From the IMG/VR virus record IMGVR_UViG_3300009500_000011, positions 104,585 through 168,584 of that record: 64,000 nt of DNA; one strand, 5' to 3'. The position numbers and the translations under genes were made by a program. The notes under the pieces are model-generated. The model was not told where the DNA came from, made no database searches, and saw nothing but the letters and a program-made list of their open reading frames with translations. This DNA comes from a virus (lineage: Duplodnaviria > Heunggongvirae > Uroviricota > Caudoviricetes). Numbering within the stretch: position 1 is the stretch's first letter; every line of letters begins with the position of its first letter. Below are positions 9,114 through 24,129 of the stretch, in pieces.

Positions 9114-9836
9114 TTATGTTGGGTCTTGGTCAAGAGCCCATAGGTCACTTATTAAGGAAGCATCAGCTTTAATGAGATGAGCCATATTACGAATCCATGC
9201 CGCAGATGAATGAACGGAAGCAATTGCTGTTGTTGCATCATTTAATAAATGATTTTGACTTGGGTCTAAACATGCAATGTCCCAGCGACAAGAAGAATCT
9301 CCTGAAAAGATTCCATATCCTCTTTGAGGAACGGTATCTTCTCCATCGTCATTTGTTTGAAGTGCGCGTTCACCGTGAGTTGAAACAATATAAATAGGTC
9401 CATTTATTAAAACAGATGGTTCTACAGAAACATTAAATGAACCGTTTGCTTCAATATTTTTTATTTTACAAACTCTTGCTACAATTCCGGCATGAATCCA
9501 TGCATGTGCAAAAGTATAAGGATTTGGACCCCAAGAACCTGTAGTAGTTACATCTGAACCATCCATCGTAAGAGCAGCGATTTCAACGTTTGCGCTTCCA
9601 TCACGGGGGTCAGAATTAAGGTGCCATGTTCCGTATGTCGTAACATCAGTTAAGTTGTTGTTTTTATAAATTGTGAATGCGTTTTTAAGAGTTTTCCAAT
9701 CAATTTTTGAGGGGTCGGTTACAGTTCCAAGAGAGGCGATATATTCACTTGAAAGATTGCCTGTTAAAGCAAATTCAATATGATAATCTCTCTGTCTTGT
9801 TGGTGGAGTAACGCTCCAATGACATGTTAAAATCAT
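9114..9836 (-). CDS. hypothetical protein (minus-strand island)
   Basis: 240-aa ORF, non-repetitive composition, convergent with the upstream + gene across a bidirectional hairpin. Confidence 0.4.
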   Translation of the reverse strand: MILTCHWSVTPPTRQRDYHIEFALTGNLSSEYIASLGTVTDPSKIDWKTLKNAFTIYKNNNLTDVTTYGTWHLNSDPRDGSANVEIAALTMDGSDVTTTGSWGPNPYTFAHAWIHAGIVARVCKIKNIEANGSFNVSVEPSVLINGPIYIVSTHGERALQTNDDGEDTVPQRGYGIFSGDSSCRWDIACLDPSQNHLLNDATTAIASVHSSAAWIRNMAHLIKADASLISDLWALDQDPT

Positions 9837-9846
9837 TTTAAAAATC

Positions 9847-10038
9847 CTAATTTAATTTTTGAATAGTAATAGTAGTTCCGCCTTCAGTAATAGAAACGTC
9901 TCCAAGACCATAGGCAGATAAATTAGCTGTTGTAGTCATTGTTGGAATTTGAACAACGATTGGTTTATTATCTTCAAAATTAGAAATATCTTTTAAAATA
10001 GCACCAATCATGCGAAGGTCTGTAAGTGGATTGCTCAT
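9847..10038 (-). CDS. hypothetical small protein
   Basis: 63-aa ORF immediately upstream of 9114..9836 on the same strand. Confidence 0.3.
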   Translation of the reverse strand: MSNPLTDLRMIGAILKDISNFEDNKPIVVQIPTMTTTANLSAYGLGDVSITEGGTTITIQKLN

Positions 10039-10110
10039 AATTATACCCTTTATGTATCAATTCTGGTTATATAATAAGAATATGCAATTGATACAAAATG
10101 AGAGTCAAAT

Positions 10111-10644
10111 ATGTTAAGACAATTAGAAGATTTAGATGAATTTTTTAAACTAAAATCTGCCGATGCTGATATTTATGCCGAACATGTTGCTGCCGAACTA
10201 TTTCGGTTTCAAACTGCTGTAAGAGCAGGAATAGAAACTGTTTTAGAAACTGCTAAACCGCACCATAATGGTATGAGTCGGGCTGTTAAAATTTTAGCTT
10301 TATGTTCGAGTATGGAAATTATACAGGCTCTTAGAAGATATTTTGCTAAAAAATCTTCTGAGGAAAGAGATACAAATATCAAAATTTTGATTCGTTCAAT
10401 TTTGGAGAATCATTCTATTGATATTTACTCAAAAATTGATATACTTCAAAATTATATTGGCAATCCAAGATTTGAACAATCTATAGATATTAAACATGAA
10501 ATAATTGATGCTTTATGTATCCTTAAATATCAATTAGATGATATAATTGAAGAAATTAAGCAATTATTGTTTAAATATTACTCAGATAAAGATGTTCGCG
10601 AGATATCTAAAAAAACTGTTGCAAAATTATTTTCATCTGATTAA
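10111..10644 (+). CDS. hypothetical protein
   Basis: Track ORF; divergent from the minus-strand pair. Confidence 0.4.
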   Translation: MLRQLEDLDEFFKLKSADADIYAEHVAAELFRFQTAVRAGIETVLETAKPHHNGMSRAVKILALCSSMEIIQALRRYFAKKSSEERDTNIKILIRSILENHSIDIYSKIDILQNYIGNPRFEQSIDIKHEIIDALCILKYQLDDIIEEIKQLLFKYYSDKDVREISKKTVAKLFSSD

Positions 10645-11146: not shown

Positions 11147-11659
11147 ATGGATTTTTTAGTTGGCGATATATTAGTTTTAAAACAAGATGCTCTTGACCTT
11201 GAAGATAAAACTGGCAAAACAATTTTATATCCCGCAGGTTCCGAAGCTGAAATTATACAAATAAAAAATGAAAATGAATATCATCTGCAATTTCCAGATG
11301 CCAAAATATGGCCTCATGACTTGGCAACTTTATTGATTTTCTTTAATCGTAAAAAAGATGGTAAAAATGTTTATACTCGCCAGGTTTCAGAGTATGGTAC
11401 GCCACCAAAAGAGCTTGCTTTTTATATACCTAGAGAAGTTGATTGGCGTAAAAACTATAGGTATACTGTCAGAATTGAAGCAGAAGATTGTGGCTTTAAA
11501 AAATTGATTTGTCCTAGTTGTTTCAATGACCTGGGAGAAAATGGCGAACCAGATAATGAAGGTTTGCAAAAATGTCAAAAATGTGGTACAATGGTTCTCC
11601 CGATAGACCCATTAACATTCAAGTATCCACATGATGACGGAAATGAACACACAACTTAA
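11147..11659 (+). CDS. hypothetical protein with C-terminal CxxC...CxxC zinc ribbon
   Basis: CPSCFNDLG...CQKCGT. Confidence 0.35.
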   Translation: MDFLVGDILVLKQDALDLEDKTGKTILYPAGSEAEIIQIKNENEYHLQFPDAKIWPHDLATLLIFFNRKKDGKNVYTRQVSEYGTPPKELAFYIPREVDWRKNYRYTVRIEAEDCGFKKLICPSCFNDLGENGEPDNEGLQKCQKCGTMVLPIDPLTFKYPHDDGNEHTT

Positions 11660-12935
11660 GAGTAATTCTCAAAAATTCTTAGAAGCAGCAAATTGGGCTC
11701 TTGTAAAAGAACGCTTTGGCGAAGATACAGGAGTTAATATTCGTCGCGCTTCTATAGATAATGTGCAAAATATTACGCTTTTCAATGGTTCAAAAGGTTT
11801 ACTTTTTGATGGATATTCGTTTCCTGAACAAGAACATCTTAAAGGCTTGATTGTTCACGAAGTATTAGGAAGCGCACATTCGGTTATAGCGGCATGTTTT
11901 CCTAAATTCTATAACTATGGCGAACCTGCTGAAAAACAAAAGCATCTTGAATACTTAAATGACGATTCTATGAGTGTGTTATTTGCTAAGAAAGAGGATG
12001 GAGTAAATATTCGTCCTTATTTCAATGCTGCAACAAATAGAGTTGAATTTGCTACGCGCGGAACCTTGCTTGTTGTTTCTGATATTGAAGAAACGTCTAA
12101 TCTTGATTATGGCGCAATGGCTCGTTCAATTGCAGAAGAAAAATATCCAATTCTTTTGGATGAGGAATTTGTAAAGAAATACTCTTGTATTTTTGAAATG
12201 ATTCATCCTGATTCCAAAATTCTTACGGATTATGGACAAAGAAAAGACCTTATTCTTCTGTCAGTATTTGATTTAGAAAATAACTGCTATGAATTTTCGC
12301 GTGAATGGGTAGCATCTTGGGCAAATATAATTGGGTTAAATTATGTTGAATATTGGTTTGACCAATATGCGCCTGTTTCTGAATTTTCTTCTTTAGTTGA
12401 AAAACTACTTAAAAAATGGAACGAAACGGATGTAGAAGGTTCTGTTGTTATATTTGTAAACTCTGAAGCAGAACCTGTATATCGTCTTAAAGTTAAAAAT
12501 GCTTATTATTTACAAATGCTTCGACTTGCAAAATTTTGCACTTTGAAGAATTTAGTCTCAATCATGGAAGAAAATAACTTTTCAAATTGGGAACAACTTC
12601 GTGCATATTTGTACGAAAGCCCTTCAATGAATGAAGAATTAGAAATGGCATATAAGGCTCATTTTGATGTATATGAAAATTGGTTAGCAAATCTTGAAAT
12701 CGAAAAACAAAATGTTTTAAAAGAATATCAAGAATTACCTTCTTTCGAATTACAAAAAGATTTTGCTTTATACATCTTAAAAGATGGCGCTTATCCATAC
12801 AATCCGCTATTCTTTGCTATTCGCAAATGGTTAGCAGAAGCCAAAAATCCTAATTTAGAACAATTCTTTGAAGAAAATGTTAAAGCAACAGTAATGTTGA
12901 AGAAAATCTATCCACTATCGGAAGTAGAGGAATAA
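11631..12935 (+). CDS. RNA ligase (T4 Rnl1-like nucleotidyltransferase)
   Basis: Motif I FAKKEDGVN (KxDG), motif IV-like DVEGSVVIF, motif V-like YRLKVK. Confidence 0.55.
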   Translation: MMTEMNTQLKSNSQKFLEAANWALVKERFGEDTGVNIRRASIDNVQNITLFNGSKGLLFDGYSFPEQEHLKGLIVHEVLGSAHSVIAACFPKFYNYGEPAEKQKHLEYLNDDSMSVLFAKKEDGVNIRPYFNAATNRVEFATRGTLLVVSDIEETSNLDYGAMARSIAEEKYPILLDEEFVKKYSCIFEMIHPDSKILTDYGQRKDLILLSVFDLENNCYEFSREWVASWANIIGLNYVEYWFDQYAPVSEFSSLVEKLLKKWNETDVEGSVVIFVNSEAEPVYRLKVKNAYYLQMLRLAKFCTLKNLVSIMEENNFSNWEQLRAYLYESPSMNEELEMAYKAHFDVYENWLANLEIEKQNVLKEYQELPSFELQKDFALYILKDGAYPYNPLFFAIRKWLAEAKNPNLEQFFEENVKATVMLKKIYPLSEVEE

Positions 12936-12936
12936 C

Positions 12937-13443
12937 ATGGGTTTATTTGATTATGTAATTTGTGATTATCCTTTACCTGATTCATATAAAGGGAGTATTA
13001 AGTTTACAACTAAAGACTTAAATTCTTTTATGAATACTTTTACTATTACTGAATCAGGTCAACTTTTAGAACACAAATTTCATTTTGAAGAAGTTCCTGA
13101 AGAAGAACGTCCTAAATTTAATACACCCGAATGGAATTCTGATAACGAAACAATTAAAACTTGGACACGCTTAATGGGTTCAAAGATTCAAGTATTTGAT
13201 GGCTTGGAACCCTACCTTTACACAGGTGCTGTTTGTTTTTACGGTTCAAATTTAGATAGTTGTAATTCGGATGGATATTATACTACAGAAAATGATGAAC
13301 CTTATGAATACAAAGAATACATTGCTTTGTTTAAAAATGGTATGTTAATTAACATTATTGAAAATAATGAAAAAGACAATGAATTTTTTACTCCAGAATG
13401 TTTTTTAACACAAAAACAGTATAAAGAAAAATATAATGAATGA
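12937..13443 (+). CDS. hypothetical protein
   Basis: Track ORF between the ligase and the Thg1-like gene. Confidence 0.4.
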   Translation: MGLFDYVICDYPLPDSYKGSIKFTTKDLNSFMNTFTITESGQLLEHKFHFEEVPEEERPKFNTPEWNSDNETIKTWTRLMGSKIQVFDGLEPYLYTGAVCFYGSNLDSCNSDGYYTTENDEPYEYKEYIALFKNGMLINIIENNEKDNEFFTPECFLTQKQYKEKYNE

Positions 13444-14197
13444 CTCGCTTGGCGACCGAATGAAAACATATTATGAAGATGTGACGCGGCATTACTTGCC
13501 TCGGCGAACTCATACAATTATTCGGTTAGATGGAAAATCTTTTCATACGTATACAAAAAAATTAGCAAGACCATTTGATGCTGGTTTGATTGAAGATATG
13601 CAAAAAACCACAATTCGACTTTGTGAGAATATTCAGGGCGTTGTTCTTGGTTATACGCAATCTGATGAAATATCTCTTGTTTTATGTGATTATAAAGAAA
13701 AAGAAACTGAATCCTTTTTTAAAGGTAATATTCAAAAAATTTGTTCAGTATCTGCAAGTATGGCTACTGCATTCTTCAATGCTTTTAGACAAGCCCGTAA
13801 TTTTGAAGGTGGTCCAGCATTTTTTGATGCTAGAGTATTTACTATTCCAGAAAAGGTAGAAGTTCTTAATTATCTTATTTGGAGACAAAAAGATGCAACA
13901 AGAAATTCTATTCAAATGGCCGCACAATCTGTTTATTCTCATAAAGAACTTAATAAAAAGAAGTGGTCTGATTTAAATGAAATGCTTTTTCAGAAAGGTA
14001 TTAATTTTAATGATTATTCTTCTTCTGAAAAACGTGGTTCTTTAATTGTGAAAGAATATTTTGAAGGGGAAGCCTATGATAAGCGTAAGCAAGAAAATGT
14101 TATAGTTACTCGGTCGCGTTGGATTGTAGAACCTGAAACACCTCTTTTTACTGCTGAAGAAAATAGAGATTTATTTGAAAGGTATTTATATAAATAA
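13436..14197 (+). CDS. Thg1-like protein (tRNA-His guanylyltransferase / 3'-5' polymerase family)
   Basis: N-terminal GDRMKTYYE...HTIIRLDGKSFHTYTKK and SDEISLV match the Thg1/TLP signature. Confidence 0.6.
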   Translation: MNDSLGDRMKTYYEDVTRHYLPRRTHTIIRLDGKSFHTYTKKLARPFDAGLIEDMQKTTIRLCENIQGVVLGYTQSDEISLVLCDYKEKETESFFKGNIQKICSVSASMATAFFNAFRQARNFEGGPAFFDARVFTIPEKVEVLNYLIWRQKDATRNSIQMAAQSVYSHKELNKKKWSDLNEMLFQKGINFNDYSSSEKRGSLIVKEYFEGEAYDKRKQENVIVTRSRWIVEPETPLFTAEENRDLFERYLYK

Positions 14198-14282
14198 ATT
14201 TAGTTATTTTCTGACTTCTTTTCATGTCGAATCGCGTACTCTATTGACATGAAGAAATTTCTCGGAAATTTTCCCTACAAAA

Positions 14283-14322
14283 AAGCCAACCATTTGTAAT
14301 AATAATGGGTGGCTTTTTGTTT
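14283..14322 (+). terminator. intrinsic terminator after the Thg1-like gene
   Basis: AAGCCAACC...GGGTGGCTT + TTTTGTTT. Confidence 0.45.
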
Positions 14323-14349
14323 GAAAAACACTATTTATGATGGAGAGCA

Positions 14350-15051
14350 ATGTATATGCCAAAAAAACAATCTTCTCAAACACCTAGAAGAATTCCAACC
14401 ATAAGAACGGTACAATTTGAAGCCCAAACAATAAATCAAGAGAAGTTTGTAAAAAATATAGAAAGAAATGTTGTTTCATTCGGAATAGGTATACCAGGTT
14501 CAGGAAAAACGTATTTAGCATTAGCAACTGCTCTTAAAGCATTAGTTGAACAAAAATGTGAACGAGTTGTAATAACTAGACCAATGGTTGAAGCAGGTCC
14601 TTCTATCGGATTCCAACCTGGAAATGAAGAAGAAAAACTTGGAGTATATTTAAAACATATTTATGATATGATATATAAATTACTACCAAAAGTTTTGGCA
14701 GATGATTTGCTTGATTCAGGAAAAATATCAATTGGTGCTATTACATTTATGAGAGGAATGAATTTTGAAAACTCATATGTAATAATAGATGAAGCCGAAA
14801 ACTTAGACAAAAAATCATTTTATTTGTTATTAACAAGAATTTGTGAAGGGTCTAAAATGATTTTTTGTGGTGATACTGGCCAGGTTGATTTAAAAAATCC
14901 TAGTGAAAGCGGATTAAATGATGCAGTTTTAAAATTTCAAGGTAAAGAAAATTTTAGTGTAACTGAATTTACTATTGAAGATTGTCGCAGAAGTAAAGTT
15001 GTTATGGAAGTTATTAAAGCATATTTCCCTAACTCAACCAAGACAAAGTAA
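14350..15051 (+). CDS. phoH: PhoH-like ATPase
   Basis: GIGIPGSGKTYLALA Walker A, VIIDEAENL Walker B, typical PhoH length and GDTGQVDL motif. Confidence 0.75.
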   Translation: MYMPKKQSSQTPRRIPTIRTVQFEAQTINQEKFVKNIERNVVSFGIGIPGSGKTYLALATALKALVEQKCERVVITRPMVEAGPSIGFQPGNEEEKLGVYLKHIYDMIYKLLPKVLADDLLDSGKISIGAITFMRGMNFENSYVIIDEAENLDKKSFYLLLTRICEGSKMIFCGDTGQVDLKNPSESGLNDAVLKFQGKENFSVTEFTIEDCRRSKVVMEVIKAYFPNSTKTK

Positions 15052-15102
15052 AACAAATTGCGTACTTAATTATGCAAACTTATTTTATGAGGCTTTTTTA
15101 GT

Positions 15103-16095
15103 ATGTTGTTTTTTGCAAATAAAATTAAAAAAATTGCATCAACCCCTTTATGGGCAAATGTTGTAAATTTAGATGACGGCTCTGGTCCTGTACAAGGGTT
15201 TTGGGTTGATTCAAGTTTGGGTATGCCATTCTTTTTAAGAAAATCCGACCATGTGATTTGGTTGCCTAAAACTTTACGTGGCAAAAAAATTGATTCTTTA
15301 ACACCAGAAGAATTACAAAATGTTCCGAAAGAAGATTCTGGAAAAGTTCATTATAAAAATTGGAAAGCAAATTCAGATAAAAGAAATATTGCCGCAAAAT
15401 TATTTAATGGATATGCTTTTACGGACGCTGGAATTCAATTAGTTCAAGGATTAAAAAAATTAGCAGATAAATATGAATTAGATGATGTTACAAATGTTCG
15501 TCTTGAACGTCGTCTTTCCATCAATCCTGGTCTTTTTGATAGACTTTTACAATGTAATAATCTTCAAGATGTTCAACGTCTTGGGCGTCTTATAGTAAGA
15601 AAATTTGTTTTCATTATTAAAAATATGAGTTTAACTGAACCTAAAATTGCCAAAAGATTAGATGCTGATTTTATGTATCAATACAAAAAAATTGAACCTC
15701 TTTTTGATATTGACCCGCTATCTATAGATGTAGAACTTCCTGAAACATTTGAAGAAAATGAAATTCCAGACCCACGTTTAGACCATGTTAAAGTTTTAAT
15801 GCAAAATTGTGAAGCAGAAATAGAACCAATGATGGATAATGACCTTCAGCTTTCTGCACCTCTCACTTGGCTAAAAGATGCTTCTAAAGTGCTTAAAAAA
15901 GCTCAAGATATTCAATCTGAAAATATAATGGAAGAAGTAAAATTTTATCTTATTTCAATGATTTTTTCTCTTCAAAAATTAGCAAAGGTTGCTCCTGCTG
16001 ACCATCCTCTTGTAGGTAAAGTCGAGCAAATTTTGAATGCTAAAAGTCTAAGTGCCATTTTAATGGCACTTGCAAAGACTGACCCGCAAATGTAA
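15103..16095 (+). CDS. hypothetical protein
   Basis: 330-aa track ORF with a GAGG RBS; no motif recognised. Confidence 0.4.
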   Translation: MLFFANKIKKIASTPLWANVVNLDDGSGPVQGFWVDSSLGMPFFLRKSDHVIWLPKTLRGKKIDSLTPEELQNVPKEDSGKVHYKNWKANSDKRNIAAKLFNGYAFTDAGIQLVQGLKKLADKYELDDVTNVRLERRLSINPGLFDRLLQCNNLQDVQRLGRLIVRKFVFIIKNMSLTEPKIAKRLDADFMYQYKKIEPLFDIDPLSIDVELPETFEENEIPDPRLDHVKVLMQNCEAEIEPMMDNDLQLSAPLTWLKDASKVLKKAQDIQSENIMEEVKFYLISMIFSLQKLAKVAPADHPLVGKVEQILNAKSLSAILMALAKTDPQM

Positions 16096-16302
16096 TATAG
16101 AGTCATGGAAGAAATAATTCGGGGTCGTTCTAATGAAGTTATTGGACGCCTCATCAAATCAAATGGCGAAACTAGTGTGTACGGTGACCGAGGTCAATAT
16201 CTTGGTTATGCTAACCAAAATGGAACTTTCGATGCTTCTGGGCGTCTTGTAAGCAATTCGGAATCTCCTACCCTACTTCTTCGGTAATAGTCGATAAAAT
16301 TG

Positions 16303-16331
16303 TTGACAAATCTATTTTAATAGACTATACT
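16303..16331 (+). promoter_or_regulatory. consensus promoter TTGACA-N17-TATACT (sRNA candidate)
   Basis: Exact -35, 17-nt spacer. Confidence 0.55.
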
Positions 16332-16337
16332 TTCAAT

Positions 16338-16468
16338 AGGACCCGTTGTAGGGACACCCGCCTGGGTATGACAGTCACTTGTCGTTTTGCCGGGCTGACC
16401 AAGAAATAGTGAACATTTTGCGGTCGTATTAAATAACCCCAGCGTGACTTATGTTCGCTGGGTTTTTA
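16338..16468 (+). ncRNA. candidate small RNA (~130 nt) between a consensus promoter and an intrinsic terminator
   Basis: TTGACA(16303)-N17-TATACT(16326-31) then no ORF, GC-rich hairpins, terminator CCCAGCG...CGCTGGG+TTTTT at 16437-16468. Confidence 0.4.
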
Positions 16469-16509
16469 ATTTGTTGGAAAACACTCTCAAAAATTTTTTT
16501 GAACGAATG

Positions 16510-16538
16510 TTGACAAAACTAAAAAAATGGCATATACT
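16510..16538 (+). promoter_or_regulatory. consensus promoter TTGACA-N17-TATACT (small ORF 16653..16775 and the tRNA cluster)
   Basis: Exact -35, 17-nt spacer. Confidence 0.55.
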
Positions 16539-16652
16539 ATAAATGCGAGCGGGCGGTTTAGTATCGCGTGAGTCTCATAAGCTCATCAAACTGGCGCAAA
16601 TCCACGGCTACGCAACCAATTTTTTAAATATTGAGGGAAGGAGATAATCAAA

Positions 16653-16775
16653 ATGTTGAACATTGCTTGTATTAATGAATGCATCAATTATCAAGGTACG
16701 AACGATAATCAGTTCGATACCCAATTTTTTCCGATTATCTCAGACTTCAATTCCGCAAGGGCTGTACCGGCTTAA
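16653..16775 (+). CDS. small protein (40 aa, Cys-containing)
   Basis: ATG 8 nt after AGGAGA, downstream of a consensus promoter and followed by a hairpin terminator. Confidence 0.3.
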   Translation: MLNIACINECINYQGTNDNQFDTQFFPIISDFNSARAVPA

Positions 16776-16804
16776 TAAAACCGAAAAAGCCTAAAAAGAG
16801 TCAA

Positions 16805-16840
16805 GGACTGAGATAGTAAAAATCTCGGTCCTTTTTGTTT
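16805..16840 (+). terminator. intrinsic terminator after the small ORF
   Basis: AGGACTGAGAT...ATCTCGGTCCT + TTTTTGTTT. Confidence 0.5.
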
Positions 16841-16875
16841 AATAGAACTTTGAAAACTGAATAAGATTTATTTTT

Positions 16876-16950
16876 GGCTCTATAGTGTAGTGGTCTGCAT
16901 AAAAGCTTGTCACGCTTTAGGTCGGGGGTCGGAACCCCGTAGAGTCGCCA
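16876..16950 (+). tRNA. tRNA-Asp (anticodon GTC)
   Basis: Acceptor GGCTCTA/TAGAGTC, anticodon stem AAAGC/GCTTT, loop TTGTCAC, G73, CCA encoded; unusual T-loop GTCGGAA. Confidence 0.65.
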
Positions 16951-16951
16951 T

Positions 16952-17027
16952 CCCCTTGTCGCTTAATGGTCTAAAGCAACTTACTGATAATGAGTAGATG
17001 AAAGTTCGATTCTTTCCGAGGGGACCA
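16952..17027 (+). tRNA. tRNA-Ile (anticodon GAT)
   Basis: Acceptor CCCCTTG/CGAGGGG, anticodon loop CTGATAA, T-arm GAAAG-TTCGATT-CTTTC, A73-CCA. Confidence 0.65.
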
Positions 17028-17049
17028 AAATACATATAATTTGGAATAT

Positions 17050-17126
17050 GGCAACATAGCCAAGGGGATAAAGGCGAAGGTCTGCAAAACCTTCATGCGT
17101 TGGTTCGAATCCAACTGTTGCCTCCA
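17050..17126 (+). tRNA. tRNA-Cys (anticodon GCA)
   Basis: Acceptor GGCAACA/TGTTGCC, loop CTGCAAA, T-arm GTTGG-TTCGAAT-CCAAC, U73-CCA. Confidence 0.75.
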
Positions 17127-17137
17127 ATTTAATTTAT

Positions 17138-17224
17138 GGAAGTATCGCATAGCGGCGATTGCATCTGACTGTAAATCAGACGCGCGAAAGCGCCTCGGAG
17201 GTTCGAGTCCTTCTACTTCCACCA
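17138..17224 (+). tRNA. tRNA-Tyr (anticodon GTA), type II
   Basis: Acceptor GGAAGTA/TACTTCC, loop CTGTAAA, long variable arm CGCGCGAAAGCGCCTC, T-arm GGAGG-TTCGAGT-CCTTC, A73-CCA. Confidence 0.75.
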
Positions 17225-17234
17225 TTTTAATAAT

Positions 17235-17308
17235 ATTTTGAGTTGCGCTAGAATAAAGTTACTTCGTCTGTAAAACGAGGAATCCGGGTTCGAGTCCCGG
17301 TCGGAATC
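17235..17308 (+). tRNA. tRNA-like element / possible pseudo-tRNA (anticodon loop CTGTAAA = GTA)
   Basis: Acceptor ATTTTGA/TCGGAAT (with G-U pairs), anticodon stem TTCGT/ACGAG, canonical T-arm CCGGG-TTCGAGT-CCCGG. No convincing D-stem; no CCA. Confidence 0.3.
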
Positions 17309-17399
17309 TAACGATTTCGGTACTTTAATCGGTAAAATCCTAAACACTTTGTTCGCTACCTTCGCTCAAAATATTTTAAAAACTTGTTGCCCATAGTAT

Positions 17400-17474
17400 G
17401 CCGAACTAGTATAATGGCTATTACATCTGTTTCGTAATCAGAGAATCTCAGTTCAATTCTGGGGTTCGGCCCCA
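17400..17474 (+). tRNA. tRNA-Thr (anticodon CGT)
   Basis: Acceptor GCCGAAC/GTTCGGC, loop TTCGTAA, T-arm CTCAG-TTCAATT-CTGGG, CCA encoded. Confidence 0.55.
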
Positions 17475-17485
17475 AAAAAATTTAT

Positions 17486-17562
17486 TCCTCTATAGCACAA
17501 TTGGTAGTTGCATCTGACTGTTAATCAGAGGGTTCCTGGTTCGACCCCAGGTAGAGGAGCCA
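17486..17562 (+). tRNA. tRNA-Asn (anticodon GTT), copy 1
   Basis: Acceptor TCCTCTA/TAGAGGA, stem TCTGA/TCAGA, loop CTGTTAA, G73-CCA. Confidence 0.7.
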
Positions 17563-17567
17563 ATTAT

Positions 17568-17641
17568 TCCTTCTTCGTTCAATGGTAGGACGTCTGGTTG
17601 TTACCCAGATAATCGCGGTTCAAGTCCGTGAGAAGGAGCCA
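17568..17641 (+). tRNA. tRNA-Asn (anticodon GTT), copy 2
   Basis: Acceptor TCCTTCT/AGAAGGA, stem TCTGG/CCAGA, loop TTGTTAC, G73-CCA. Confidence 0.6.
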
Positions 17642-17712
17642 ATTTATTCAGTTCGAAAATTATTATAAATTCAAACTAACTTACATACTATACATTTCAG
17701 AGGTACAAAATA

Positions 17713-18174
17713 ATGAAATGTAGAGTATGTAAAATAGAAAAAGAAATTGAATTATTCCCTTGGGCTAAAGTAGGTGCTAGACGTAGTTCTCGTTGTAAAG
17801 ATTGTCAAAAAATTTTAAGTAAAAAACACTATCAAAATAATAAAAAATATTATCAAGATAAAGAAAAAATTCGCCGCGAAAAATATTATAGTGAAACCAA
17901 TAAATTACTTTATGATTATTTAATTGAGCATCCATGTGTAAAATGTGGCGAATCTGAACCATTATTTTTGGATTTTGACCATTGTACTGGAACAAATGAT
18001 AAAATAGCAAATATTTCAGTTTTAGTTTCAATTAAAGTAAATTTTGATAAAATTCTTAAAGAAATAGAAAAATGTCAAGTATTATGTTTAAAATGCCACA
18101 GAATAAAAACTGCCAAAGAAGGTAATTGGTATAAATATCAAAGATATATAGAAAAACAAAATTTAAAAAATTAA
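17713..18174 (+). CDS. HNH homing endonuclease (family copy 1)
   Basis: CxxC pairs and HNH core FDHCTG...N...CLKCHRIKT; embedded in the tRNA cluster. Confidence 0.6.
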   Translation: MKCRVCKIEKEIELFPWAKVGARRSSRCKDCQKILSKKHYQNNKKYYQDKEKIRREKYYSETNKLLYDYLIEHPCVKCGESEPLFLDFDHCTGTNDKIANISVLVSIKVNFDKILKEIEKCQVLCLKCHRIKTAKEGNWYKYQRYIEKQNLKN

Positions 18175-18270
18175 AATCTTGCAGTTTGGGTATACTGCGT
18201 TCGTCGTCGTGGAGAAAGACTTTCTGATTAAGGATGTTTCCAAGGACAGTAAAACAAAAATACTCGTTAT

Positions 18271-18345
18271 GGCCCAGTCGTCTAGTGGCTAGGATTGCTG
18301 ATTTTCACTCAGTAGAAGGCGGGTCGGAACCGCTCTGGGCTACCA
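18271..18345 (+). tRNA. tRNA-Glu (anticodon TTC)
   Basis: Acceptor GGCCCAG/CTGGGCT, loop TTTTCAC, T-arm with GTCGGAA loop (as in tRNA-Asp), A73-CCA. Confidence 0.65.
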
Positions 18346-18372
18346 AATTTTAGATTAAGAAAAGAGAAGAGA

Positions 18373-18615
18373 ATGCAAAAAATTCAAATTGTTTATACAG
18401 ATAATCCAAGTGAAATAGAAGCAGTTTTTATTGATGGTAAGATAGTTGCTGCTTGGTATTTAAGTGATGCAAGTTGGCGTGGTGAATATTTTAATGGATT
18501 CATGGGAAAACTTGGTATTGAAGTAGATGATTATAGTCGAGCAACTTCGGAACAAATTGAATCTATTAAAGATTGGTTTAATTTAGATGAAGATGAATTA
18601 CTTTATGCCTTATGA
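18373..18615 (+). CDS. hypothetical protein
   Basis: Track ORF; its 3' end overlaps the tRNA-Gln 5' end. Confidence 0.4.
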   Translation: MQKIQIVYTDNPSEIEAVFIDGKIVAAWYLSDASWRGEYFNGFMGKLGIEVDDYSRATSEQIESIKDWFNLDEDELLYAL

Positions 18616-18676
18616 TGTAATGGTAGCATAAGATGCTCTGAACATCTTTGTAATCGTTCGAGTCGATTTAAGGCAG
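18606..18676 (+). tRNA. tRNA-Gln (anticodon CTG)
   Basis: Acceptor TGCCTTA/TAAGGCA, stem AGATG/CATCT, loop CTCTGAA, T-arm AATCG-TTCGAGT-CGATT, G73, no CCA. Confidence 0.6.
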
Positions 18677-18684
18677 CGATTTAA

Positions 18685-18759
18685 TCCCTTGTCGTCTAAT
18701 TGGTAGGACGCGAGATTTTGGTTCTCGCTATCGTGGTTCGAGTCCATGCGAGGGAACCA
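18685..18759 (+). tRNA. tRNA-Gln (anticodon TTG)
   Basis: Acceptor TCCCTTG/CGAGGGA, stem CGAGA/TCTCG, loop TTTTGGT, T-arm CGTGG-TTCGAGT-CCATG, A73-CCA. Confidence 0.55.
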
Positions 18760-18766
18760 GTTTTAT

Positions 18767-18843
18767 TGGAGAATGGCCAAGTTGGTAAGGCACCTCGCTT
18801 TGAACGAGGAAATGCGAAGGTTCGATGCCTTCTTCTCCAGCCA
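18767..18843 (+). tRNA. tRNA with anticodon TTG (Gln-type loop CTTTGAA), atypical 6-nt variable region
   Basis: Acceptor TGGAGAA/TTCTCCA, D-arm GCC-AAGTTGGTAA-GGC, stem CCTCG/CGAGG, T-arm GAAGG-TTCGATG-CCTTC, G73-CCA. Confidence 0.45.
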
Positions 18844-18867
18844 AATTTTTTAAATATCAAACATCGA

Positions 18868-18943
18868 CCGGGTTTAGCTGAGACGGTTCAAGCGTGTCCC
18901 TGAAGAGGACGAGACGGGGATTCGAGCGCCCCAACCCGGACCA
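18868..18943 (+). tRNA. tRNA-Phe (anticodon GAA)
   Basis: Acceptor CCGGGTT/AACCCGG, stem TGTCC/GGACG, loop CTGAAGA, A73-CCA; T-stem has one A-G mismatch. Confidence 0.55.
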
Positions 18944-18948
18944 ATCAT

Positions 18949-19020
18949 TGGAGTGGTAGCATAGAGGTAATGTACCGTTTTATCGCGAGCGGGATGAAGG
19001 TTCGAGTCCTTCCCCTCCAG
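18949..19020 (+). tRNA. tRNA-like gene with 8-nt anticodon loop (TTATCGCG) - identity unclear
   Basis: Acceptor TGGAGTG/CCCTCCA (one mismatch), D-arm GCAT-AGAGGTA-ATGT, stem CCGTT/AGCGG enclosing 8 nt, canonical T-arm GAAGG-TTCGAGT-CCTTC. Confidence 0.35.
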
Positions 19021-19040
19021 TTCTTTTTTAAAAAGAAATC

Positions 19041-19214
19041 ATGATTAATAAACAATTAGTAAAAGAAGTTGCTGCTCGAATTAAAAATCCATCACCACGT
19101 ACAGCAAAGCGTGAATCTTTTGCTATTGCTTCTATGGTAGCAGAATCTTTAAAATTATCAGGAATAATGACAACTCTAGAAGATGTTTTAAAATCTTATT
19201 ATGGAGATAAATAA
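19041..19214 (+). CDS. hypothetical small protein (57 aa)
   Basis: ATG after AAAAGAAATC, open frame to TAA 19212-19214; below the ORF-track length cut-off. Confidence 0.3.
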   Translation: MINKQLVKEVAARIKNPSPRTAKRESFAIASMVAESLKLSGIMTTLEDVLKSYYGDK

Positions 19215-19217
19215 TTT

Positions 19218-19496
19218 ATGATGAGATTCAAACCTGGTGATAAAGTAACAGCAGTTTTTTCTGCTGATAAGACAGCCCACATAATGAAATATCCAAATGG
19301 TTTGCCCGGATATGACCATTGTTGTGACAAATGCCGTGGCGTTGCTCGCATGGTTTGTTTGGCGTTTATGCATTATGATTTTGGAATTAAAGAGGGAACG
19401 CTTTTACCTACTTGTGAGTTTTGTGCAAAAGGTTTAATTGATGAAGGTAATTTATCTCCTGCTCTTGGAAAATATTTAAAAGAGATACAGGTATGA
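19218..19496 (+). CDS. Cys-rich (zinc-binding) small protein
   Basis: HCCDKCRG...CEFC. Confidence 0.35.
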   Translation: MMRFKPGDKVTAVFSADKTAHIMKYPNGLPGYDHCCDKCRGVARMVCLAFMHYDFGIKEGTLLPTCEFCAKGLIDEGNLSPALGKYLKEIQV

Positions 19497-19696
19497 AATA
19501 CAAAGTTGTTTATGAATATTATGCCGGAATGGGTGATTATGGTATTGATGAACGATTTATAGAATCAAGAGAAGAATTAATTAAAATTTTAAATAATGTT
19601 TTTAGGGACGATATAATGATTAATGCTATCAAAATTTATCGTTTAAATCCAAATAGCGAATATTTAGGAGAAATAGATTATCATGACAAAATTTGA
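19493..19696 (+). CDS. hypothetical protein
   Basis: Track ORF, overlapping start/stop. Confidence 0.3.
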   Translation: MKYKVVYEYYAGMGDYGIDERFIESREELIKILNNVFRDDIMINAIKIYRLNPNSEYLGEIDYHDKI

Positions 19697-19913
19697 AGCC
19701 TTGCCTCAATCTCAAGAAAAATATAACCGTAATACAACAACTGACAAAGTTCCTAATGCTACTCAGGCTTCTTTTCGTCGTGCTGAAATGTTAATATGTA
19801 AACATTGCAAGAAAAACTGGAATGAGCATTTAGGTTATTTTGTTGGCAAAGCAGTTCCTGGAATGTGTTTAACTGAAGAAAATTTTAAAGAAACAGGAAC
19901 AAAAATCTCTTAG
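19683..19913 (+). CDS. hypothetical protein
   Basis: Track ORF; CKHCKK motif. Confidence 0.3.
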   Translation: MTKFEALPQSQEKYNRNTTTDKVPNATQASFRRAEMLICKHCKKNWNEHLGYFVGKAVPGMCLTEENFKETGTKIS

Positions 19914-19950
19914 TATAAGATAATAATAGAAATTATATTGTCTTTGATTT

Positions 19951-20026
19951 GCAGGTGTCGTATAATGGATAATTACAGGGCATTGCCAATGCTCAAATAG
20001 GAGTTCGATTCTCCTTACCTGCTCCA
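19951..20026 (+). tRNA. tRNA-Gly (anticodon GCC)
   Basis: Acceptor GCAGGTG/TACCTGC, stem GGGCA/TGCTC, loop TTGCCAA, T-arm AGGAG-TTCGATT-CTCCT, U73-CCA. Confidence 0.75.
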
Positions 20027-20045
20027 ATATATAAAAAAAGGCAAT

Positions 20046-20414
20046 ATGTTTTCGCGTAAAATTTTTAAACCAGTTGAAATTCCAAAGTTTGATTTAAGAC
20101 CAATTAAATTACAAAGATTAGCATTTATAAAAAATTCTTGCTTTCACTCTGATTATTTATGTGTAGAACCCAATGTTGTTGAAGAAATAAAATTCTTTAA
20201 AGACAAATTTTATCCAGTTCAATTCTTTGAAAAAGTAACTCAATTTACTCTATACAGAAGTTTAGACTATTTAGATAATAATACTACTATTGGATTTTAT
20301 AAATATTCTAATATATTTAATATTAATACTAATTTAATAGATTGGATAGGACAAGAATTTGATACCGAGGAATTTCTTAATTATCATGAAGTTATAAAGG
20401 TTACGCGCAAATGA
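20046..20414 (+). CDS. hypothetical protein
   Basis: Track ORF. Confidence 0.35.
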   Translation: MFSRKIFKPVEIPKFDLRPIKLQRLAFIKNSCFHSDYLCVEPNVVEEIKFFKDKFYPVQFFEKVTQFTLYRSLDYLDNNTTIGFYKYSNIFNINTNLIDWIGQEFDTEEFLNYHEVIKVTRK

Positions 20415-20578
20415 CAGATTCAACTGTAGATGCAATAAAAAATATGAATCAATTTAAAGATAAACATAGACGTATGCAACTTATGGCTGATATTTTTGAT
20501 GCTTCAAAAGATTTTGAAGAAGATGAAGAAAATAATATAGAAGTAAAAAAAGAAGTTAAAAATAATGCAAATAAATGA
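20411..20578 (+). CDS. hypothetical small acidic protein (55 aa)
   Basis: ATG at 20411, frame closes at TGA 20576-20578; overlaps neighbours by 4 and 14 nt. Confidence 0.3.
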   Translation: MTDSTVDAIKNMNQFKDKHRRMQLMADIFDASKDFEEDEENNIEVKKEVKNNANK

Positions 20579-20777
20579 AACATCTGTTTACGAACTTCGT
20601 TTAAAATATCCTCTTAATGGCGCTTCTTCTCAGGAAGAAGTTCATAAACGCCTTAAGGATATTTCTGCTTTATTAAAAGAGCATGGGTTTACTTCTGTTG
20701 AAATAACTGCTGCGGGTCTTGAAGTTGCTAGTGGAGATTTAGACATTAGAACTTTTAAAACTCCTTTGAAATACTAA
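20565..20777 (+). CDS. hypothetical protein
   Basis: Track ORF. Confidence 0.3.
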   Translation: MQINETSVYELRLKYPLNGASSQEEVHKRLKDISALLKEHGFTSVEITAAGLEVASGDLDIRTFKTPLKY

Positions 20778-21223
20778 TGTTAGAGCGTAATCAAGATATA
20801 TTAACTCAAATTAATGAACCTCATGTAGCAACCTGTGTGACAACGAATGCAGTAGTCAAACAGGATGGTAAAGCGGTAATGGGTGCAGGGGTTGCAAAAG
20901 TTATTAGAGACATGTATAGTGGTTCCGACACAATTTTAGGTGCGCTTATTAAAACTTATGGGCATAAAGTTCAACAGTTTTGGATAACACCTGCATTAGT
21001 ATCTTTTCCTACTAAAGACCATTTCAAAAATAAATCAAATATTTCTTTAATTCAACGTTCTGCAAAAGAACTTTACGAATGGGCAAATCTTAATACACAA
21101 TATTTGACCATAATATTGCCAAGACCTGGTTGCAATAATGGGGGTTTAAATTGGGAAGATATAAAACCAACACTAGAATCAATCTTAGTAGATAATAGAT
21201 TTGTTGTAATAGATAAAGGATGA
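20777..21223 (+). CDS. macro-domain-like protein (ADP-ribose binding/hydrolase?)
   Basis: TCVTTNAVVKQDGKAVMGAGVAKVI resembles the macro-domain N-terminal motif (V.AAN..L.GGGV). Confidence 0.35.
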   Translation: MLERNQDILTQINEPHVATCVTTNAVVKQDGKAVMGAGVAKVIRDMYSGSDTILGALIKTYGHKVQQFWITPALVSFPTKDHFKNKSNISLIQRSAKELYEWANLNTQYLTIILPRPGCNNGGLNWEDIKPTLESILVDNRFVVIDKG

Positions 21224-21227
21224 AAGA

Positions 21228-21500
21228 ATGAGAATTGTTATTAATACGTGTTATGGCGGATTTAGTCTTTCCAAAGAAGCATATAAATATTTAAACAAAG
21301 AATGGGATGGATATGGATACGATTTTAATTTGTCAAGACATGACCCAAAACTTGTTGAATGTGTTGAAAAACTTGGTGCATCAGCAAATGGTACGTATGC
21401 AGAATTGAAAGTCATAGAAATTCCTGATGATGTTGATTACATAATCGAAGAATACGATGGAATAGAACATGTTGCAGAACGTCATAGAGTCTGGAATTAA
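21228..21500 (+). CDS. hypothetical protein
   Basis: Track ORF. Confidence 0.3.
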   Translation: MRIVINTCYGGFSLSKEAYKYLNKEWDGYGYDFNLSRHDPKLVECVEKLGASANGTYAELKVIEIPDDVDYIIEEYDGIEHVAERHRVWN

Positions 21501-21741
21501 AATGAATAACGAATATTATTGGGTCATATCCTGTTCTGAAGATGGCGATGTAAGAATAGAACCATATAGTAAACCTATACTTTTAAGAGGGTTAAAAGAA
21601 AAATGGTGGGGTCAACCTTTGGAAAATATACCATACGGAGGAATTGACCCCCAAGATTGGGGTAATAGAATACTAATAATTAAAGGTTCTCAAGTAGTTC
21701 CTTTTGAAAAAGAAATTGTTACGGAGTACGATATTATTTAA
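21469..21741 (+). CDS. hypothetical protein
   Basis: Track ORF. Confidence 0.3.
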   Translation: MLQNVIESGIKMNNEYYWVISCSEDGDVRIEPYSKPILLRGLKEKWWGQPLENIPYGGIDPQDWGNRILIIKGSQVVPFEKEIVTEYDII

Positions 21742-21742
21742 A

Positions 21743-21925
21743 ATGGGTAAAGTTGAATTTATTTATGATAATTATAGTGGAGAACTTCGTTTAGTTGTTA
21801 TTAATGGTCGCATGTTTAGAATTTTTGATGATACAATAACTTCTTTTAAAGATATTTTTGAACATCTTCGTTATGATGTTACGGTTAAAGGAATTGAACC
21901 CGAAGAATTTGAAGAATTAATGTGA
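21743..21925 (+). CDS. hypothetical protein
   Basis: Start moved to ATG 21743 to avoid overlap with the upstream ORF. Confidence 0.3.
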   Translation: MGKVEFIYDNYSGELRLVVINGRMFRIFDDTITSFKDIFEHLRYDVTVKGIEPEEFEELM

Positions 21926-22161
21926 GCAATTCAACTTGCGAAATGATTGCTTATGGCACTCCTTGTCGCAAAAACAACAATTTGACAAAATGTGAAACTT
22001 GCGGTAAAGTATTTTGTGGTAAGTATCATGAACGAAGTCATAATTGTCCAAAAGGCACCATTGATTCCAAAGAAGAATATAATCAATGGTTAAAAGATAC
22101 AAATTCAGAACCTTGGAGAATAGATACAGAAGCATCAAGATATAAACATCCAGGAGTATAA
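21922..22161 (+). CDS. zinc-finger small protein
   Basis: CETCGKVFCGKYHERSHNC (C2H2/zinc-ribbon-like). Confidence 0.35.
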   Translation: MSNSTCEMIAYGTPCRKNNNLTKCETCGKVFCGKYHERSHNCPKGTIDSKEEYNQWLKDTNSEPWRIDTEASRYKHPGV

Positions 22162-22163
22162 GA

Positions 22164-22454
22164 ATGACTAAAGAATTTGACCCTATAACACTTCGAAATT
22201 TAGTTTGGGAAGAACTAGATGAAAATGAAGATTATAAAGTGATTGTAGATGAAATAATATCAACTACAAGATGGGCGGTAGTTCACAAGCTTATTTTTAA
22301 GCACGACGGTAAATTTTGGCAAACTACATATAATGTGCCTGCAACCGAAATGCAAGAAGAAATGCCTTTTGAATATCAAGAAGTAGTAAATTGTCGTCAA
22401 GTTGTTCCTAAAGAAGTAACCACAATAAAATACGTGCCTGCTAATGATGAATAG
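22164..22454 (+). CDS. hypothetical protein
   Basis: Track ORF. Confidence 0.3.
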   Translation: MTKEFDPITLRNLVWEELDENEDYKVIVDEIISTTRWAVVHKLIFKHDGKFWQTTYNVPATEMQEEMPFEYQEVVNCRQVVPKEVTTIKYVPANDE

Positions 22455-22803
22455 TATAACTTTAAATTATACAATTTCGGGTTCTGCCGCAAAGTGTGCC
22501 GCTGCTGCATCGCTTCTTATTAAAAAATTTGAAGAAGTCATTTTCTTAAATGAAAGTGGTCAATTTGAAAATGCTACAAAAATTTCATTGTTTAATTTTC
22601 AGAATCAGTATCCAAATGCTTACAAAGGTATAATTGAATTTAAATCAAAGGAAAATATCCATAGAATCTCTCAATTATTAGGCGGAACATGGAAGAAACC
22701 TGTTGACCACAATATCTATTTAATTTCAGAAAAAGGTTTTCAAGAAATAGGAATTGATTGGGCTTGTCTGGAATACAGCGGAGAATGGCCTAAAATAAAA
22801 TAA
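22444..22803 (+). CDS. hypothetical protein
   Basis: Track ORF. Confidence 0.3.
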   Translation: MMNSITLNYTISGSAAKCAAAASLLIKKFEEVIFLNESGQFENATKISLFNFQNQYPNAYKGIIEFKSKENIHRISQLLGGTWKKPVDHNIYLISEKGFQEIGIDWACLEYSGEWPKIK

Positions 22804-22893
22804 ATCTAAACAGATTTATATACAAACAATCTTTACTACAATATAAATGCCTATAGGATTCACTAATTAATTCTAAATATTTTATGAGGACAT

Positions 22894-23004
22894 ATGGACG
22901 AATACGGCGAAGACGAAGATTTATTTGATAATTTATATGATGATGATTTCGTTGATAATGAAGACGAAGAAGACATTTATATAGAAGACGAAGAAGAATT
23001 TTAA
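22894..23004 (+). CDS. very acidic 36-aa protein (DNA-mimic-like composition)
   Basis: MDEYGEDEDLFDNLYDDDFVDNEDEEDIYIEDEEEF; ATG 22894 to TAA 23002-23004. Confidence 0.3.
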   Translation: MDEYGEDEDLFDNLYDDDFVDNEDEEDIYIEDEEEF

Positions 23005-23091
23005 AATTTGCACGGGCGTTGGTGACAAGGGACAGGGAAACGACCAACGAAGAATGATGACGGGCGTGGGGTTGTCATTCAAAATAATAAT

Positions 23092-23174
23092 GCTGGGGTG
23101 GCTCAGAGGCGACAGCGCCAGTTTTGTAAACTGGTATACAAACAACGTGGGTTCGAGTCCCACCCCCAGCCCCA
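23092..23174 (+). tRNA. tRNA-Thr-like (anticodon TGT) with 12-nt unpaired variable region
   Basis: Acceptor GCTGGGG/CCCCAGC, stem CCAGT/ACTGG, loop TTTGTAA, variable TATACAAACAAC, T-arm GTGGG-TTCGAGT-CCCAC, CCA encoded. Confidence 0.5.
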
Positions 23175-23388
23175 ATTATGTTATATAATGAGTATTAAGC
23201 AGATACAATATTCTAGTAGTCTAGATGGGACCCGAGCTTGTCATCCCACGGACGTTAAAGTGGTGCGGCGATAGATGTGGTTCAAGCATATGAACGACAC
23301 ATATTATTAACTGAAATAAATGCCAAATAAACAGCCTTTTGAAAGGTGTTAAATTAAGGTAATTATTGTCTTAGAAAGAAAATTAAAT

Positions 23389-24129
23389 ATGTCAAAAACA
23401 ATAAAACGAACAGTCACAACCATCGTTGAAGAAGAAGTTGTGCCTACTAATGAAGGTCTTTATACCGAAGTATTAGTAGATATGTCAGGTTCTATGTCAA
23501 ATGTTTGGGACTCTACAATTGCCGGTATCAATGAATTAAAAAACGGCCCATCTGGTTCCAATGATACAATGTCATTGACGTTTTTTGATAACGTTGTTGA
23601 ACGTCCATATATCAACAAATCTGTTAAATCAATTCCAGATGTAACTCGCGAATTATATCATCCACGCGGTTCTACTGCGTTACTTGATGCAATTGGAACA
23701 ACAATTAGAAGTGTTGAAAATATGAAAGATAGACCTTCTAAAGTTTTGTTTGTCATCATAACTGATGGTCAAGAAAATGCAAGTCGTGAATTTAATAATT
23801 CTCAAGTCTCTGCTCTTATTCGTGAAAAAGAAGCACAAGGCTGGGAATTTCTTTATATGGGAGCAAACCAAGATGCTTGGTCAACTGCTACGAATATTGG
23901 TATTCAAGGTGTAGGTAAATTTAATTTTGCTTCTAATCCTACTGTTACTGCTGCTGCTTTTAAAGGTGCTTCAGCAACACGTTCTGCTTATTCTAGTGGT
24001 ATGTCATACAATGCATCGGTTGGTGCGACATACAGCACGTTAAATGCTGTAGCACCAGAACTTAATGCAAACTATCTTGACAATAGTGGAAACACTTCTA
24101 TAATCGACACAGATATTACAAAGATTTAA
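23389..24129 (+). CDS. von Willebrand factor A (vWA) domain protein
   Basis: MIDAS-like VLVDMSGSMS ... TALLDAIG ... VIITDGQEN. Confidence 0.55.
   Translation: MSKTIKRTVTTIVEEEVVPTNEGLYTEVLVDMSGSMSNVWDSTIAGINELKNGPSGSNDTMSLTFFDNVVERPYINKSVKSIPDVTRELYHPRGSTALLDAIGTTIRSVENMKDRPSKVLFVIITDGQENASREFNNSQVSALIREKEAQGWEFLYMGANQDAWSTATNIGIQGVGKFNFASNPTVTAAAFKGASATRSAYSSGMSYNASVGATYSTLNAVAPELNANYLDNSGNTSIIDTDITKI

Follow-up and report, generated by a model that had tools for sequence, protein, structure and literature searches.

From its transcription signals, its predicted fold and its distribution among related contigs, we conclude that positions 16303–16468 are probably an independent gene of an uncultivated AT-rich jumbo phage, with a structured non-coding RNA of about 125–131 nt as its product. 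The window, which is the whole 64,000-nt stretch of DNA analysed here, has a GC content of 33%, bears almost all of its genes on the + strand and contains 32 tRNA genes according to ARAGORN. Metagenomic contigs, of which one measures 274.8 kb, contain near-identical DNA, which identifies the source as an uncultivated jumbo phage. The phage was detected in the sequencing runs SRR5829579 and ERR10755936 and in the assemblies ERZ25039472 and ERZ25039479. None of 50,697 phage records matched positions 16200–16900 (blastn, distant mode), and a 1191-aa ORF of the window had no match in the 50,697 deposited phage genomes (tblastn). The region possesses its own promoter, an intrinsic terminator at its 3' end and no conserved coding frame, as is generally expected of sRNA genes. 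The first-pass annotation had described it as a compact promoter-to-terminator unit, and our results uphold this description: the signals are non-random, the fold is strand-specific, the nearby ORF is not conserved, and the unit is nearly unchanged amid about 8% divergence. The unit and its surroundings comprise the following features.

Upstream of the PhoH gene and the RNA unit: Rnl1-type RNA ligase and Thg1-like protein
14350–15051, + strand: PhoH, 233 aa, upstream of the RNA unit
15103–16095, + strand: 330-aa ORF without a known domain, upstream of the RNA unit
Stop at 16287, + strand: 60-aa ORF, the last ORF before the RNA unit
16303–16331, + strand: sigma-70-type promoter P1, with TTGACA (−35), a 17-nt spacer and TATACT (−10)
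16338–16359, + strand: inferred transcript start and 5' segment AGGACCCGUUGUAGGGACACCC, weakly structured according to the fold and pair probabilities
16360–16395, + strand: predicted hairpin P2, RNA positions 23–58, pair probabilities 0.98–0.999
16396–16426, + strand: predicted hairpin P3, RNA positions 59–89, pair probabilities 0.97–0.996
16427–16437, + strand: A/U-rich linker UAUUAAAUAAC, 11 nt, directly before the terminator and unpaired in the minimum free energy (MFE) and centroid structures
16438–16468, + strand: intrinsic terminator T1, a CCCAGCG/CGCUGGG stem with inner pairs, followed by UUUUUAAUUU
16510–16538, + strand: second promoter, of the exact TTGACA-N17-TATACT type, 40 nt past T1
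16545–16620, + strand: degenerate initiator-tRNA-Met-like element, 76 nt, with a transcript start at about 16545
16653–16775, + strand: 40-aa ORF with a strong RBS
16803–16833, + strand: terminator T2, which ends the unit of the second promoter
From 16876: tRNA cluster, beginning with tRNA-Asp, downstream of the RNA unit

Promoter, RNA body and terminator

The perfect TTGACA-N17-TATACT promoter claimed previously is present exactly at 16303–16331 on the + strand. It agrees with the sigma-70-type consensus at 11 of 12 positions. One correction applies: the −35 hexamer reads TTGAAA in three related haplotypes, so that the perfect TTGACA is specific to the haplotype of the window. The promoter as such is kept in all haplotypes, the relatives carrying TTGAAA-N17-TATACT with its weaker −35. 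The window has three exact TTGACA-N16-18-TATACT sequences where 0.06 would be expected, and none of 100 shuffles reached three. The looser pattern TTGACA-N16-18-TANNNT has 15 sites where 5.05 would be expected for the two strands together; all 15 are on the + strand, and several of them, at 24077, 50007, 58092 and 62537, lie directly ahead of tRNA genes. Because of this excess, the restriction to the + strand and the sites preceding tRNAs, we regard the class to which P1 belongs as a real, used promoter class and not as a chance pair of hexamers. The extended form TG-TTGACAAA of P1 recurs in both of the other exact copies. Each of these precedes a stable-RNA-like element: in one case the initiator-tRNA-like element that begins at 16545, in the other a leader with a tmRNA at 52603–53054. 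The exact TTGACAAA...TATACT promoters of the window thus look dedicated to RNA genes, which supports the same reading for P1.

Judged from the spacing, transcription would start at A16338 or G16339, 7–8 nt past the −10 hexamer. For the 131-nt RNA 16338–16468 the MFE is −45.3 kcal/mol (z-score −2.97), a value that none of 200 dinucleotide shuffles equalled. Within the 5' segment a small hairpin pairs C5–C7 with G14–G16, with a pair probability of 0.95 for 5–16 and 0.58 for 2–21. P2 consists of a 6-bp outer stem (23–28/53–58), an internal loop, a 7-bp inner stem (31–37/42–48) and the loop UCAC. It is followed, with no linker, by P3, which has a 5-bp stem, a 2×2 internal loop, a second 5-bp stem and the loop AGUGAAC. 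Read from the sequence, GUGA of the P3 loop is complementary to UCAC of the P2 loop, although a kissing contact between them is only putative. The GC-rich paired segments noted in the first-pass annotation are confirmed by these pair probabilities and z-score and by the base composition of the RNA, whose GC content is 0.49–0.51 compared with 0.33 for the window; its 120-nt peak of 0.508 lies within the range of tRNA genes, and the 103-nt body after the promoter has a GC content of about 50%. The − strand folds 8 kcal/mol more weakly than the + strand, and five G-U pairs can form only in the + strand RNA, which indicates that the signal is at the RNA level and on the + strand.

The RNA of about 130 nt was also claimed to be free of ORFs, and this holds. 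The longest + strand frame within it has 13 codons from an AUG that lies inside a hairpin and has no Shine-Dalgarno sequence. A 32-aa GTG frame at 16444–16542 begins in the terminator and is frameshifted in L001, the contig of the 96%-related phage discussed below.

The terminator, called a textbook one in the earlier annotation, deserves that description: its hairpin has a free energy of −15.3 kcal/mol in the window and −14.9 to −17.8 kcal/mol in the relatives, runs into UUUUUAAUUU and is kept in all four haplotypes. The loop carries two substitutions in relatives while the stem is intact, and the U-tract of L001 is interrupted (UUAUUU). A simple terminator scan did not report T1, probably because its unextended loop of 11 nt exceeds the 8-nt limit of the scan. 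As no terminator was found between the stop of the 60-aa ORF at 16287 and the start of P1 at 16303, T1 must also end the upstream operon of PhoH, the 330-aa ORF and the 60-aa ORF.

Conservation, homologue searches and the variable slot

The 330-aa neighbour has nine relatives among 5.8 billion proteins, and the RNA is retained only next to the one that is 96% identical. The loci compared were the contigs of eight of these nine relatives and further contigs found through the 60-aa ORF, for which the search returned near-identical contigs only. The RNA unit is confined to the closest clade (L001/L002/L013, L014 and L015; L016 has a sequence identical to the window's). Four near-identical haplotypes carry it there, one of them on the 274.8-kb contig, and identity over the unit is at least 97%. 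Between the window and L001, 7.9% of positions differ over 10.2 kb, compared with two differences in the 103-nt RNA body. One of these, G37A in P2, changes a G-U to an A-U pair and is the sole substitution, so that pairing is preserved; the other is the deletion of one C at the 3' edge of the single-stranded linker. The sequence of P3 is invariant across all haplotypes. Among the four haplotypes, at least 97% identical as they are, the G-U to A-U change in P2 is the one pairing-informative change, and there is no double compensatory change. The low divergence of the RNA body is consistent with constraint. In the same comparison, however, about 11% of 103-nt windows have at most one difference against the two of the RNA body, which makes the conservation suggestive but not decisive.

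Searches for a known family or a more distant homologue gave no match. A gathering-threshold scan of the whole window with Rfam 15 (4227 covariance models) returned tRNAs only, and E-value scans of 14000–30000 and of 16290–16660 gave only noise over the RNA unit. The best scores there, each compared with its gathering cutoff, were 18.5 against 90 bits for MicC (E 2.5), 13.8 against 55 for rnk_pseudo and 19.9 against 80 for SNORA22. The Rfam scan proposed with the first-pass annotation has therefore been carried out and assigns the unit to no family, with scores at noise level. No paralogue of the RNA was found in the window by blastn or with its covariance model R1 (filters off), the best other match, of 15.2 bits, lying inside an ORF. 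Applied to eight distant loci with filters off, R1 matched only the downstream terminator, at 19.6 bits. Two patterns were without any match in viral contigs, metagenome contigs or the contigs of 185,579 species-representative genomes: one of 23 nt, exact apart from a single N (RNA positions 26–48), and a transition-tolerant one of 42 nt (RNA positions 22–63). A further exact 20-mer had none in viral contigs; a search of viral contigs for related loci found none, and the 40-aa ORF used as query for homologous loci gave no candidates. Since no Rfam family, pattern or covariance model matched outside the close clade, we regard the RNA as an orphan of a narrow lineage. Among specific candidates, a tRNA, tmRNA or tRNA-like identity was rejected, as ARAGORN, RF00005 and RF00023 gave no match over 16338–16468, and informal inspection by eye revealed no fit to the hammerhead and pistol ribozyme cores or to a Cas12a repeat.

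The search for targets was made within the 64-kb window. A duplex scan of 128 translation-initiation regions gave a result no better than that of shuffles (9/60), and antisense matches of the RNA reached at most 11 contiguous nucleotides, with one of 13 nt containing a mismatch.

Downstream of T1, the claimed second promoter of identical type and the tRNA cluster are both found, at 16510–16538 and from 16876 onwards, respectively. The second promoter, however, directly serves the tRNA-like element and the 40-aa ORF up to T2, and not the tRNA cluster. The tRNA-like element has an anticodon loop CUCAUAA, a T-loop-like CAAAUCC, a 3' end CGCAACCA and mismatched acceptor and T stems; it resembles the tRNA-Met of the relative L008 and was called by neither ARAGORN nor Rfam. 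A module of promoter, small ORF (39–40 aa), T2, AACTTTGAAAACTGAATA and tRNA-Asp is conserved in the distant relatives L004 and L010, without the tRNA-like element.

The stretch between the 60-aa ORF and this module is a variable slot. In relatives whose 330-aa protein is 40–58% identical, it contains other cargo and no RNA unit. A protein of 319–373 aa occupies it in L003 (7238–8359), L004 (7251–8297), L007 (7068–8060) and L008 (7017–7976). This protein has an N-terminal OB fold of the anticodon-binding type and weak but consistent profile matches to LysRS/AspRS (best 3a74_A, E 2.4e-7), from which we consider it a shortened, divergent class-IIb aminoacyl-tRNA synthetase (aaRS)-like protein beside the tRNA cluster. 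The slot of L010 holds a 115-aa sigma-70-region-4 HTH protein with a TTGACA promoter of its own. The cargo of the sister phages at this slot, be it the class-IIb aaRS-like or the HTH protein, is self-promoted, and no homologue of these slot proteins was found in the window (tblastn). One genomic slot can hold RNA cargo or protein cargo.

Other RNA-related features of the phage genome

Ahead of the tRNA cluster, the block at 11631–14197 encodes an AdoMet decarboxylase-like protein and the Rnl1-type RNA ligase and Thg1-like 3'–5' polymerase listed above, together with PhoH. The same block is conserved in the relatives L003–L008, with Ku as an additional member in sister phages, and its content suggests a phage-borne tRNA/RNA repair toolkit. 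Mobile elements vary among genomes that are otherwise near-identical. In L001, PhoH has 584 aa (4195–5949) and bears a faint Hom_end_hint (intein/Hint-type) Pfam mark, compared with 233 aa in the window, and its tRNA region (9342–10556) contains an inserted IS605-type TnpB (OrfB_IS605/Cas12f1-like) that is absent from the window.

The third exact TTGACA-N17-TATACT promoter, at 52438–52466, lies ahead of an ORF-free GC-rich region (52438–53095). The tmRNA model RF00023 matches 52603–53054 with 45.7 bits (gathering cutoff 47; E 8.8e-16), and ARAGORN made no call. By eye, GGGAUAU pairs with AUAUUCC-ACCA to form an acceptor stem with a G3-U pair, and the tag frame would read ANKQSQTFSVTGFNDFIAREAVAA followed by a stop. 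A structured 130-nt leader (52473–52602; z-score −2.44) lies between this promoter and the tmRNA.

The phage also encodes a Ro60/Rsr orthologue, a 588-aa ORF at 45439–47205 with TROVE (E 4e-32) and Ro60 vWA domains; neither YrlA nor Y_RNA was found by Rfam in the whole window. Upstream of the Ro60 gene, a gap of 560 nt (44905–45440) holds a promoter TTGCAA-N17-TATAAT, followed by an odd tRNA at 44941–45014 (32 bits) whose anticodon loop, UUUAAAUG, has 8 nt and whose CCA is encoded. The gap further contains several short modules that repeat the pattern TTGCG..TA..TAC..TACTTCTT, one of them then followed by a GGTTCGAGTCC T-loop. Such modules also occur around an atypical 67-nt 'tRNA-Tyr' at 17242–17308 (region 17229–17400), and they may represent split, permuted or Y-RNA-like tRNA-derived elements. 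The tRNA at 18948–19021, to which ARAGORN assigns the four-base anticodon atcg and which scores 35.2 bits against the Rfam tRNA model, is conserved in L001 (10896–10969) and may be a quadruplet-decoding or otherwise unusual tRNA.

Function, alternative readings and relation to known systems

If the unit is an independent gene, a host-type sigma-70 RNA polymerase would start the RNA about 7 nt past TATACT. The transcript would fold during its synthesis into the small 5' hairpin, the stable bipartite P2 and P3 structure and the single-stranded A/U-rich linker. Release would take place at T1, which would also stop read-through of the upstream operon. The unit as a whole would represent self-contained cargo, with promoter, gene and terminator, inserted in the variable slot before the tRNA cluster. 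Our leading guess, and in our analysis the most likely mode of action, is that the RNA acts in trans as a stable small RNA or riboregulator. The linker, terminator hairpin and U-tail have the layout that is usual at the 3' end of chaperone-dependent base-pairing sRNAs, and pairing would probably involve either the linker or the first 22 nt of the RNA, which are loosely structured. Protein binding by the RNA is nearly as likely as such base-pairing in trans. The further description of the RNA as an abundant and early sRNA is plausible but unproven, as it draws only on the near-consensus host-type promoter.

The RNA could instead be a cis-acting leader that, together with T1, forms an attenuator, a riboswitch-like switch or a put-like processive antiterminator, and that determines how much of the transcription from P1 reaches the downstream units and, beyond T2, the tRNA cluster. 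We consider this unlikely. It does account for several observations: positions 7–16 of the nascent RNA can pair with the 5' arm of the terminator (100–107) before the 3' arm is made, giving a three-way junction that encloses P2 and P3 (−31.4 vs −30.0 kcal/mol), and the UCAC/GUGA complementarity of the P2 and P3 loops recalls junction aptamers with kissing loops. Moreover, no consensus promoter was seen between T2 (16803–16833) and tRNA-Asp (16876), so that the tRNA cluster may depend on read-through. Yet the completed, terminated fold is about 13–15 kcal/mol more stable than the alternatives, and the other alternative examined, a riboswitch-type pairing of 22–29 with 101–107, is 15 kcal/mol worse and occurs in none of 30,829 suboptimal structures within 6 kcal/mol. 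Control at T1 would also add little, as an equally strong second promoter follows 40 nt past T1. Rfam scans detected no riboswitch, T-box or leader family, and the sister phages keep the downstream module (promoter, 39-aa ORF, T2 and tRNA-Asp) without the RNA element. A riboswitch or attenuator would be expected to show mutually exclusive terminator and antiterminator structures of similar stability and a regulated gene downstream; here no alternative structure is comparable in stability to the terminated fold, and the next feature downstream is a strong promoter. It is quite unlikely, too, that the RNA is just the structured 3' end and terminator of the PhoH/330-aa/60-aa operon, with promoter hexamers that are weak or incidental. 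T1 is the first terminator after the 60-aa ORF stop at 16287, and stable 3' structures shield mRNAs from exonucleases, which would favour such a role. A terminator, however, needs far less than 100 nt of tRNA-like GC content with three hairpins; P1 belongs, as an exact copy, to a strand-specific promoter class, the remaining exact copies of which serve RNA genes, and TTGAAA-N17-TATACT persists in the related haplotypes.

We regard it as very unlikely that the RNA is a decoy or protein-binding RNA directed against a host or phage factor, whether a CRISPR-repeat-like anti-CRISPR, a sponge for a defence nuclease or a Y-RNA partner of the phage Ro60 protein. Such a role would suit a highly structured RNA with no evident base-pairing target in a phage that encodes a TROVE/Ro60 protein and, upstream of the unit, an Rnl1-type ligase, a Thg1-like protein and PhoH, and examples are known of phage RNA decoys that come with a promoter and terminator of their own. 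An anti-CRISPR RNA is countered by the patterns of RNA positions 26–48 and 22–63, which matched none of the 185,579 species-representative genomes. A Y RNA is opposed by ends that form no terminal stem, by the lack of a tRNA-like module and of any YrlA/Y_RNA match in Rfam, and by the distance of 29 kb from the Ro60 gene. The Y-RNA partner of Ro60 was rejected as a candidate, given that no T-arm motif is present and that, by the MFE and centroid structures alike, the 5' end is taken up by a local hairpin and the 3' end by the terminator. A non-functional relic, that is, a decayed gene, tRNA or mobile-element fragment that retained its transcription signals, is highly improbable. The slot does vary among relatives, the phylogenetic distribution is very narrow and the adjoining 16545–16620 looks like a degenerate tRNA-Met, but the RNA resembles neither tRNAs nor any other part of the window nor the slot proteins of relatives (tblastn), its body has diverged less than the coding sequence around it, and its fold is significantly better than those of shuffles. 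A 3'-UTR structure, a defence decoy and a relic are each less well supported than an independent gene. Least probable, and a distinctly speculative proposal, is that the RNA founds a new class of structured phage RNAs. In this proposal the 5' segment and the terminator 5' arm would close a three-way junction, the P2 and P3 loops would kiss, and the element would, in this lineage, take over the function of the divergent class-IIb aaRS-like protein that sister phages have at this position, with an effect on tRNA metabolism or on how the adjacent tRNA cluster is expressed. If this were true, the RNA could be, for example, a tRNA- or ligand-sensing switch or a processive antiterminator.

An independent RNA gene in this position has partial counterparts in known systems. 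The closest in kind and position come from the tRNA region of the large virulent phage T4, which yields two small stable RNAs, RNAC and RNAD, whose role is unknown decades on (PMC3014915, PMC9697503) and which are classified as late RNAs (PMC9697503). Like them, the RNA described here is a small non-coding RNA beside or within the tRNA cluster of a large phage, a likeness of position and kind only. RNAC and RNAD are processed out of tRNA precursor transcripts, unlike the present unit, which has its own consensus promoter and terminator. Sequence features shared with Hfq-type sRNAs such as MicC, MicL and DapZ are a strong sigma-70 promoter, a length of about 100–130 nt, hairpins, an A/U stretch and a GC-rich terminator with a U-tail, and sRNAs of this type likewise have a promoter that adjoins the 3' end of the upstream gene and a terminator common to the upstream mRNA. 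Unlike in these sRNAs, no seed or target was found in the window, and the MicC score is at noise level (18.5 vs 90 bits). The unit also resembles phage morons in having its own promoter and terminator and in residing in a slot with differing cargo in related phages. Classical morons are protein-coding and were defined in temperate phages, whereas the cargo here is an RNA, in a jumbo phage that is apparently virulent in style. Similarity to the YrlA Y RNAs that act with Ro60/Rsr is limited to size and to the presence of a Ro60 orthologue in the same genome; unlike YrlA, the RNA lacks both a Ro-binding stem formed by its ends and a tRNA-like domain, it gave no Rfam match, and it is not adjacent to the Ro60 gene.

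The RNA is reasonably interpreted as a new orphan among the phage-encoded small RNAs, which are as such a known kind. As it stands, the unit opens no larger question alone. Its practical value is that of a well-defined target for RNA-seq or northern blotting if the phage or its host is cultivated. Phage small RNAs are poorly charted, and the unit adds one candidate to them, in a phage genome whose other RNA-related genes include those for a tmRNA, over 30 tRNAs, a Ro60 orthologue and enzymes of the RNA-repair type.
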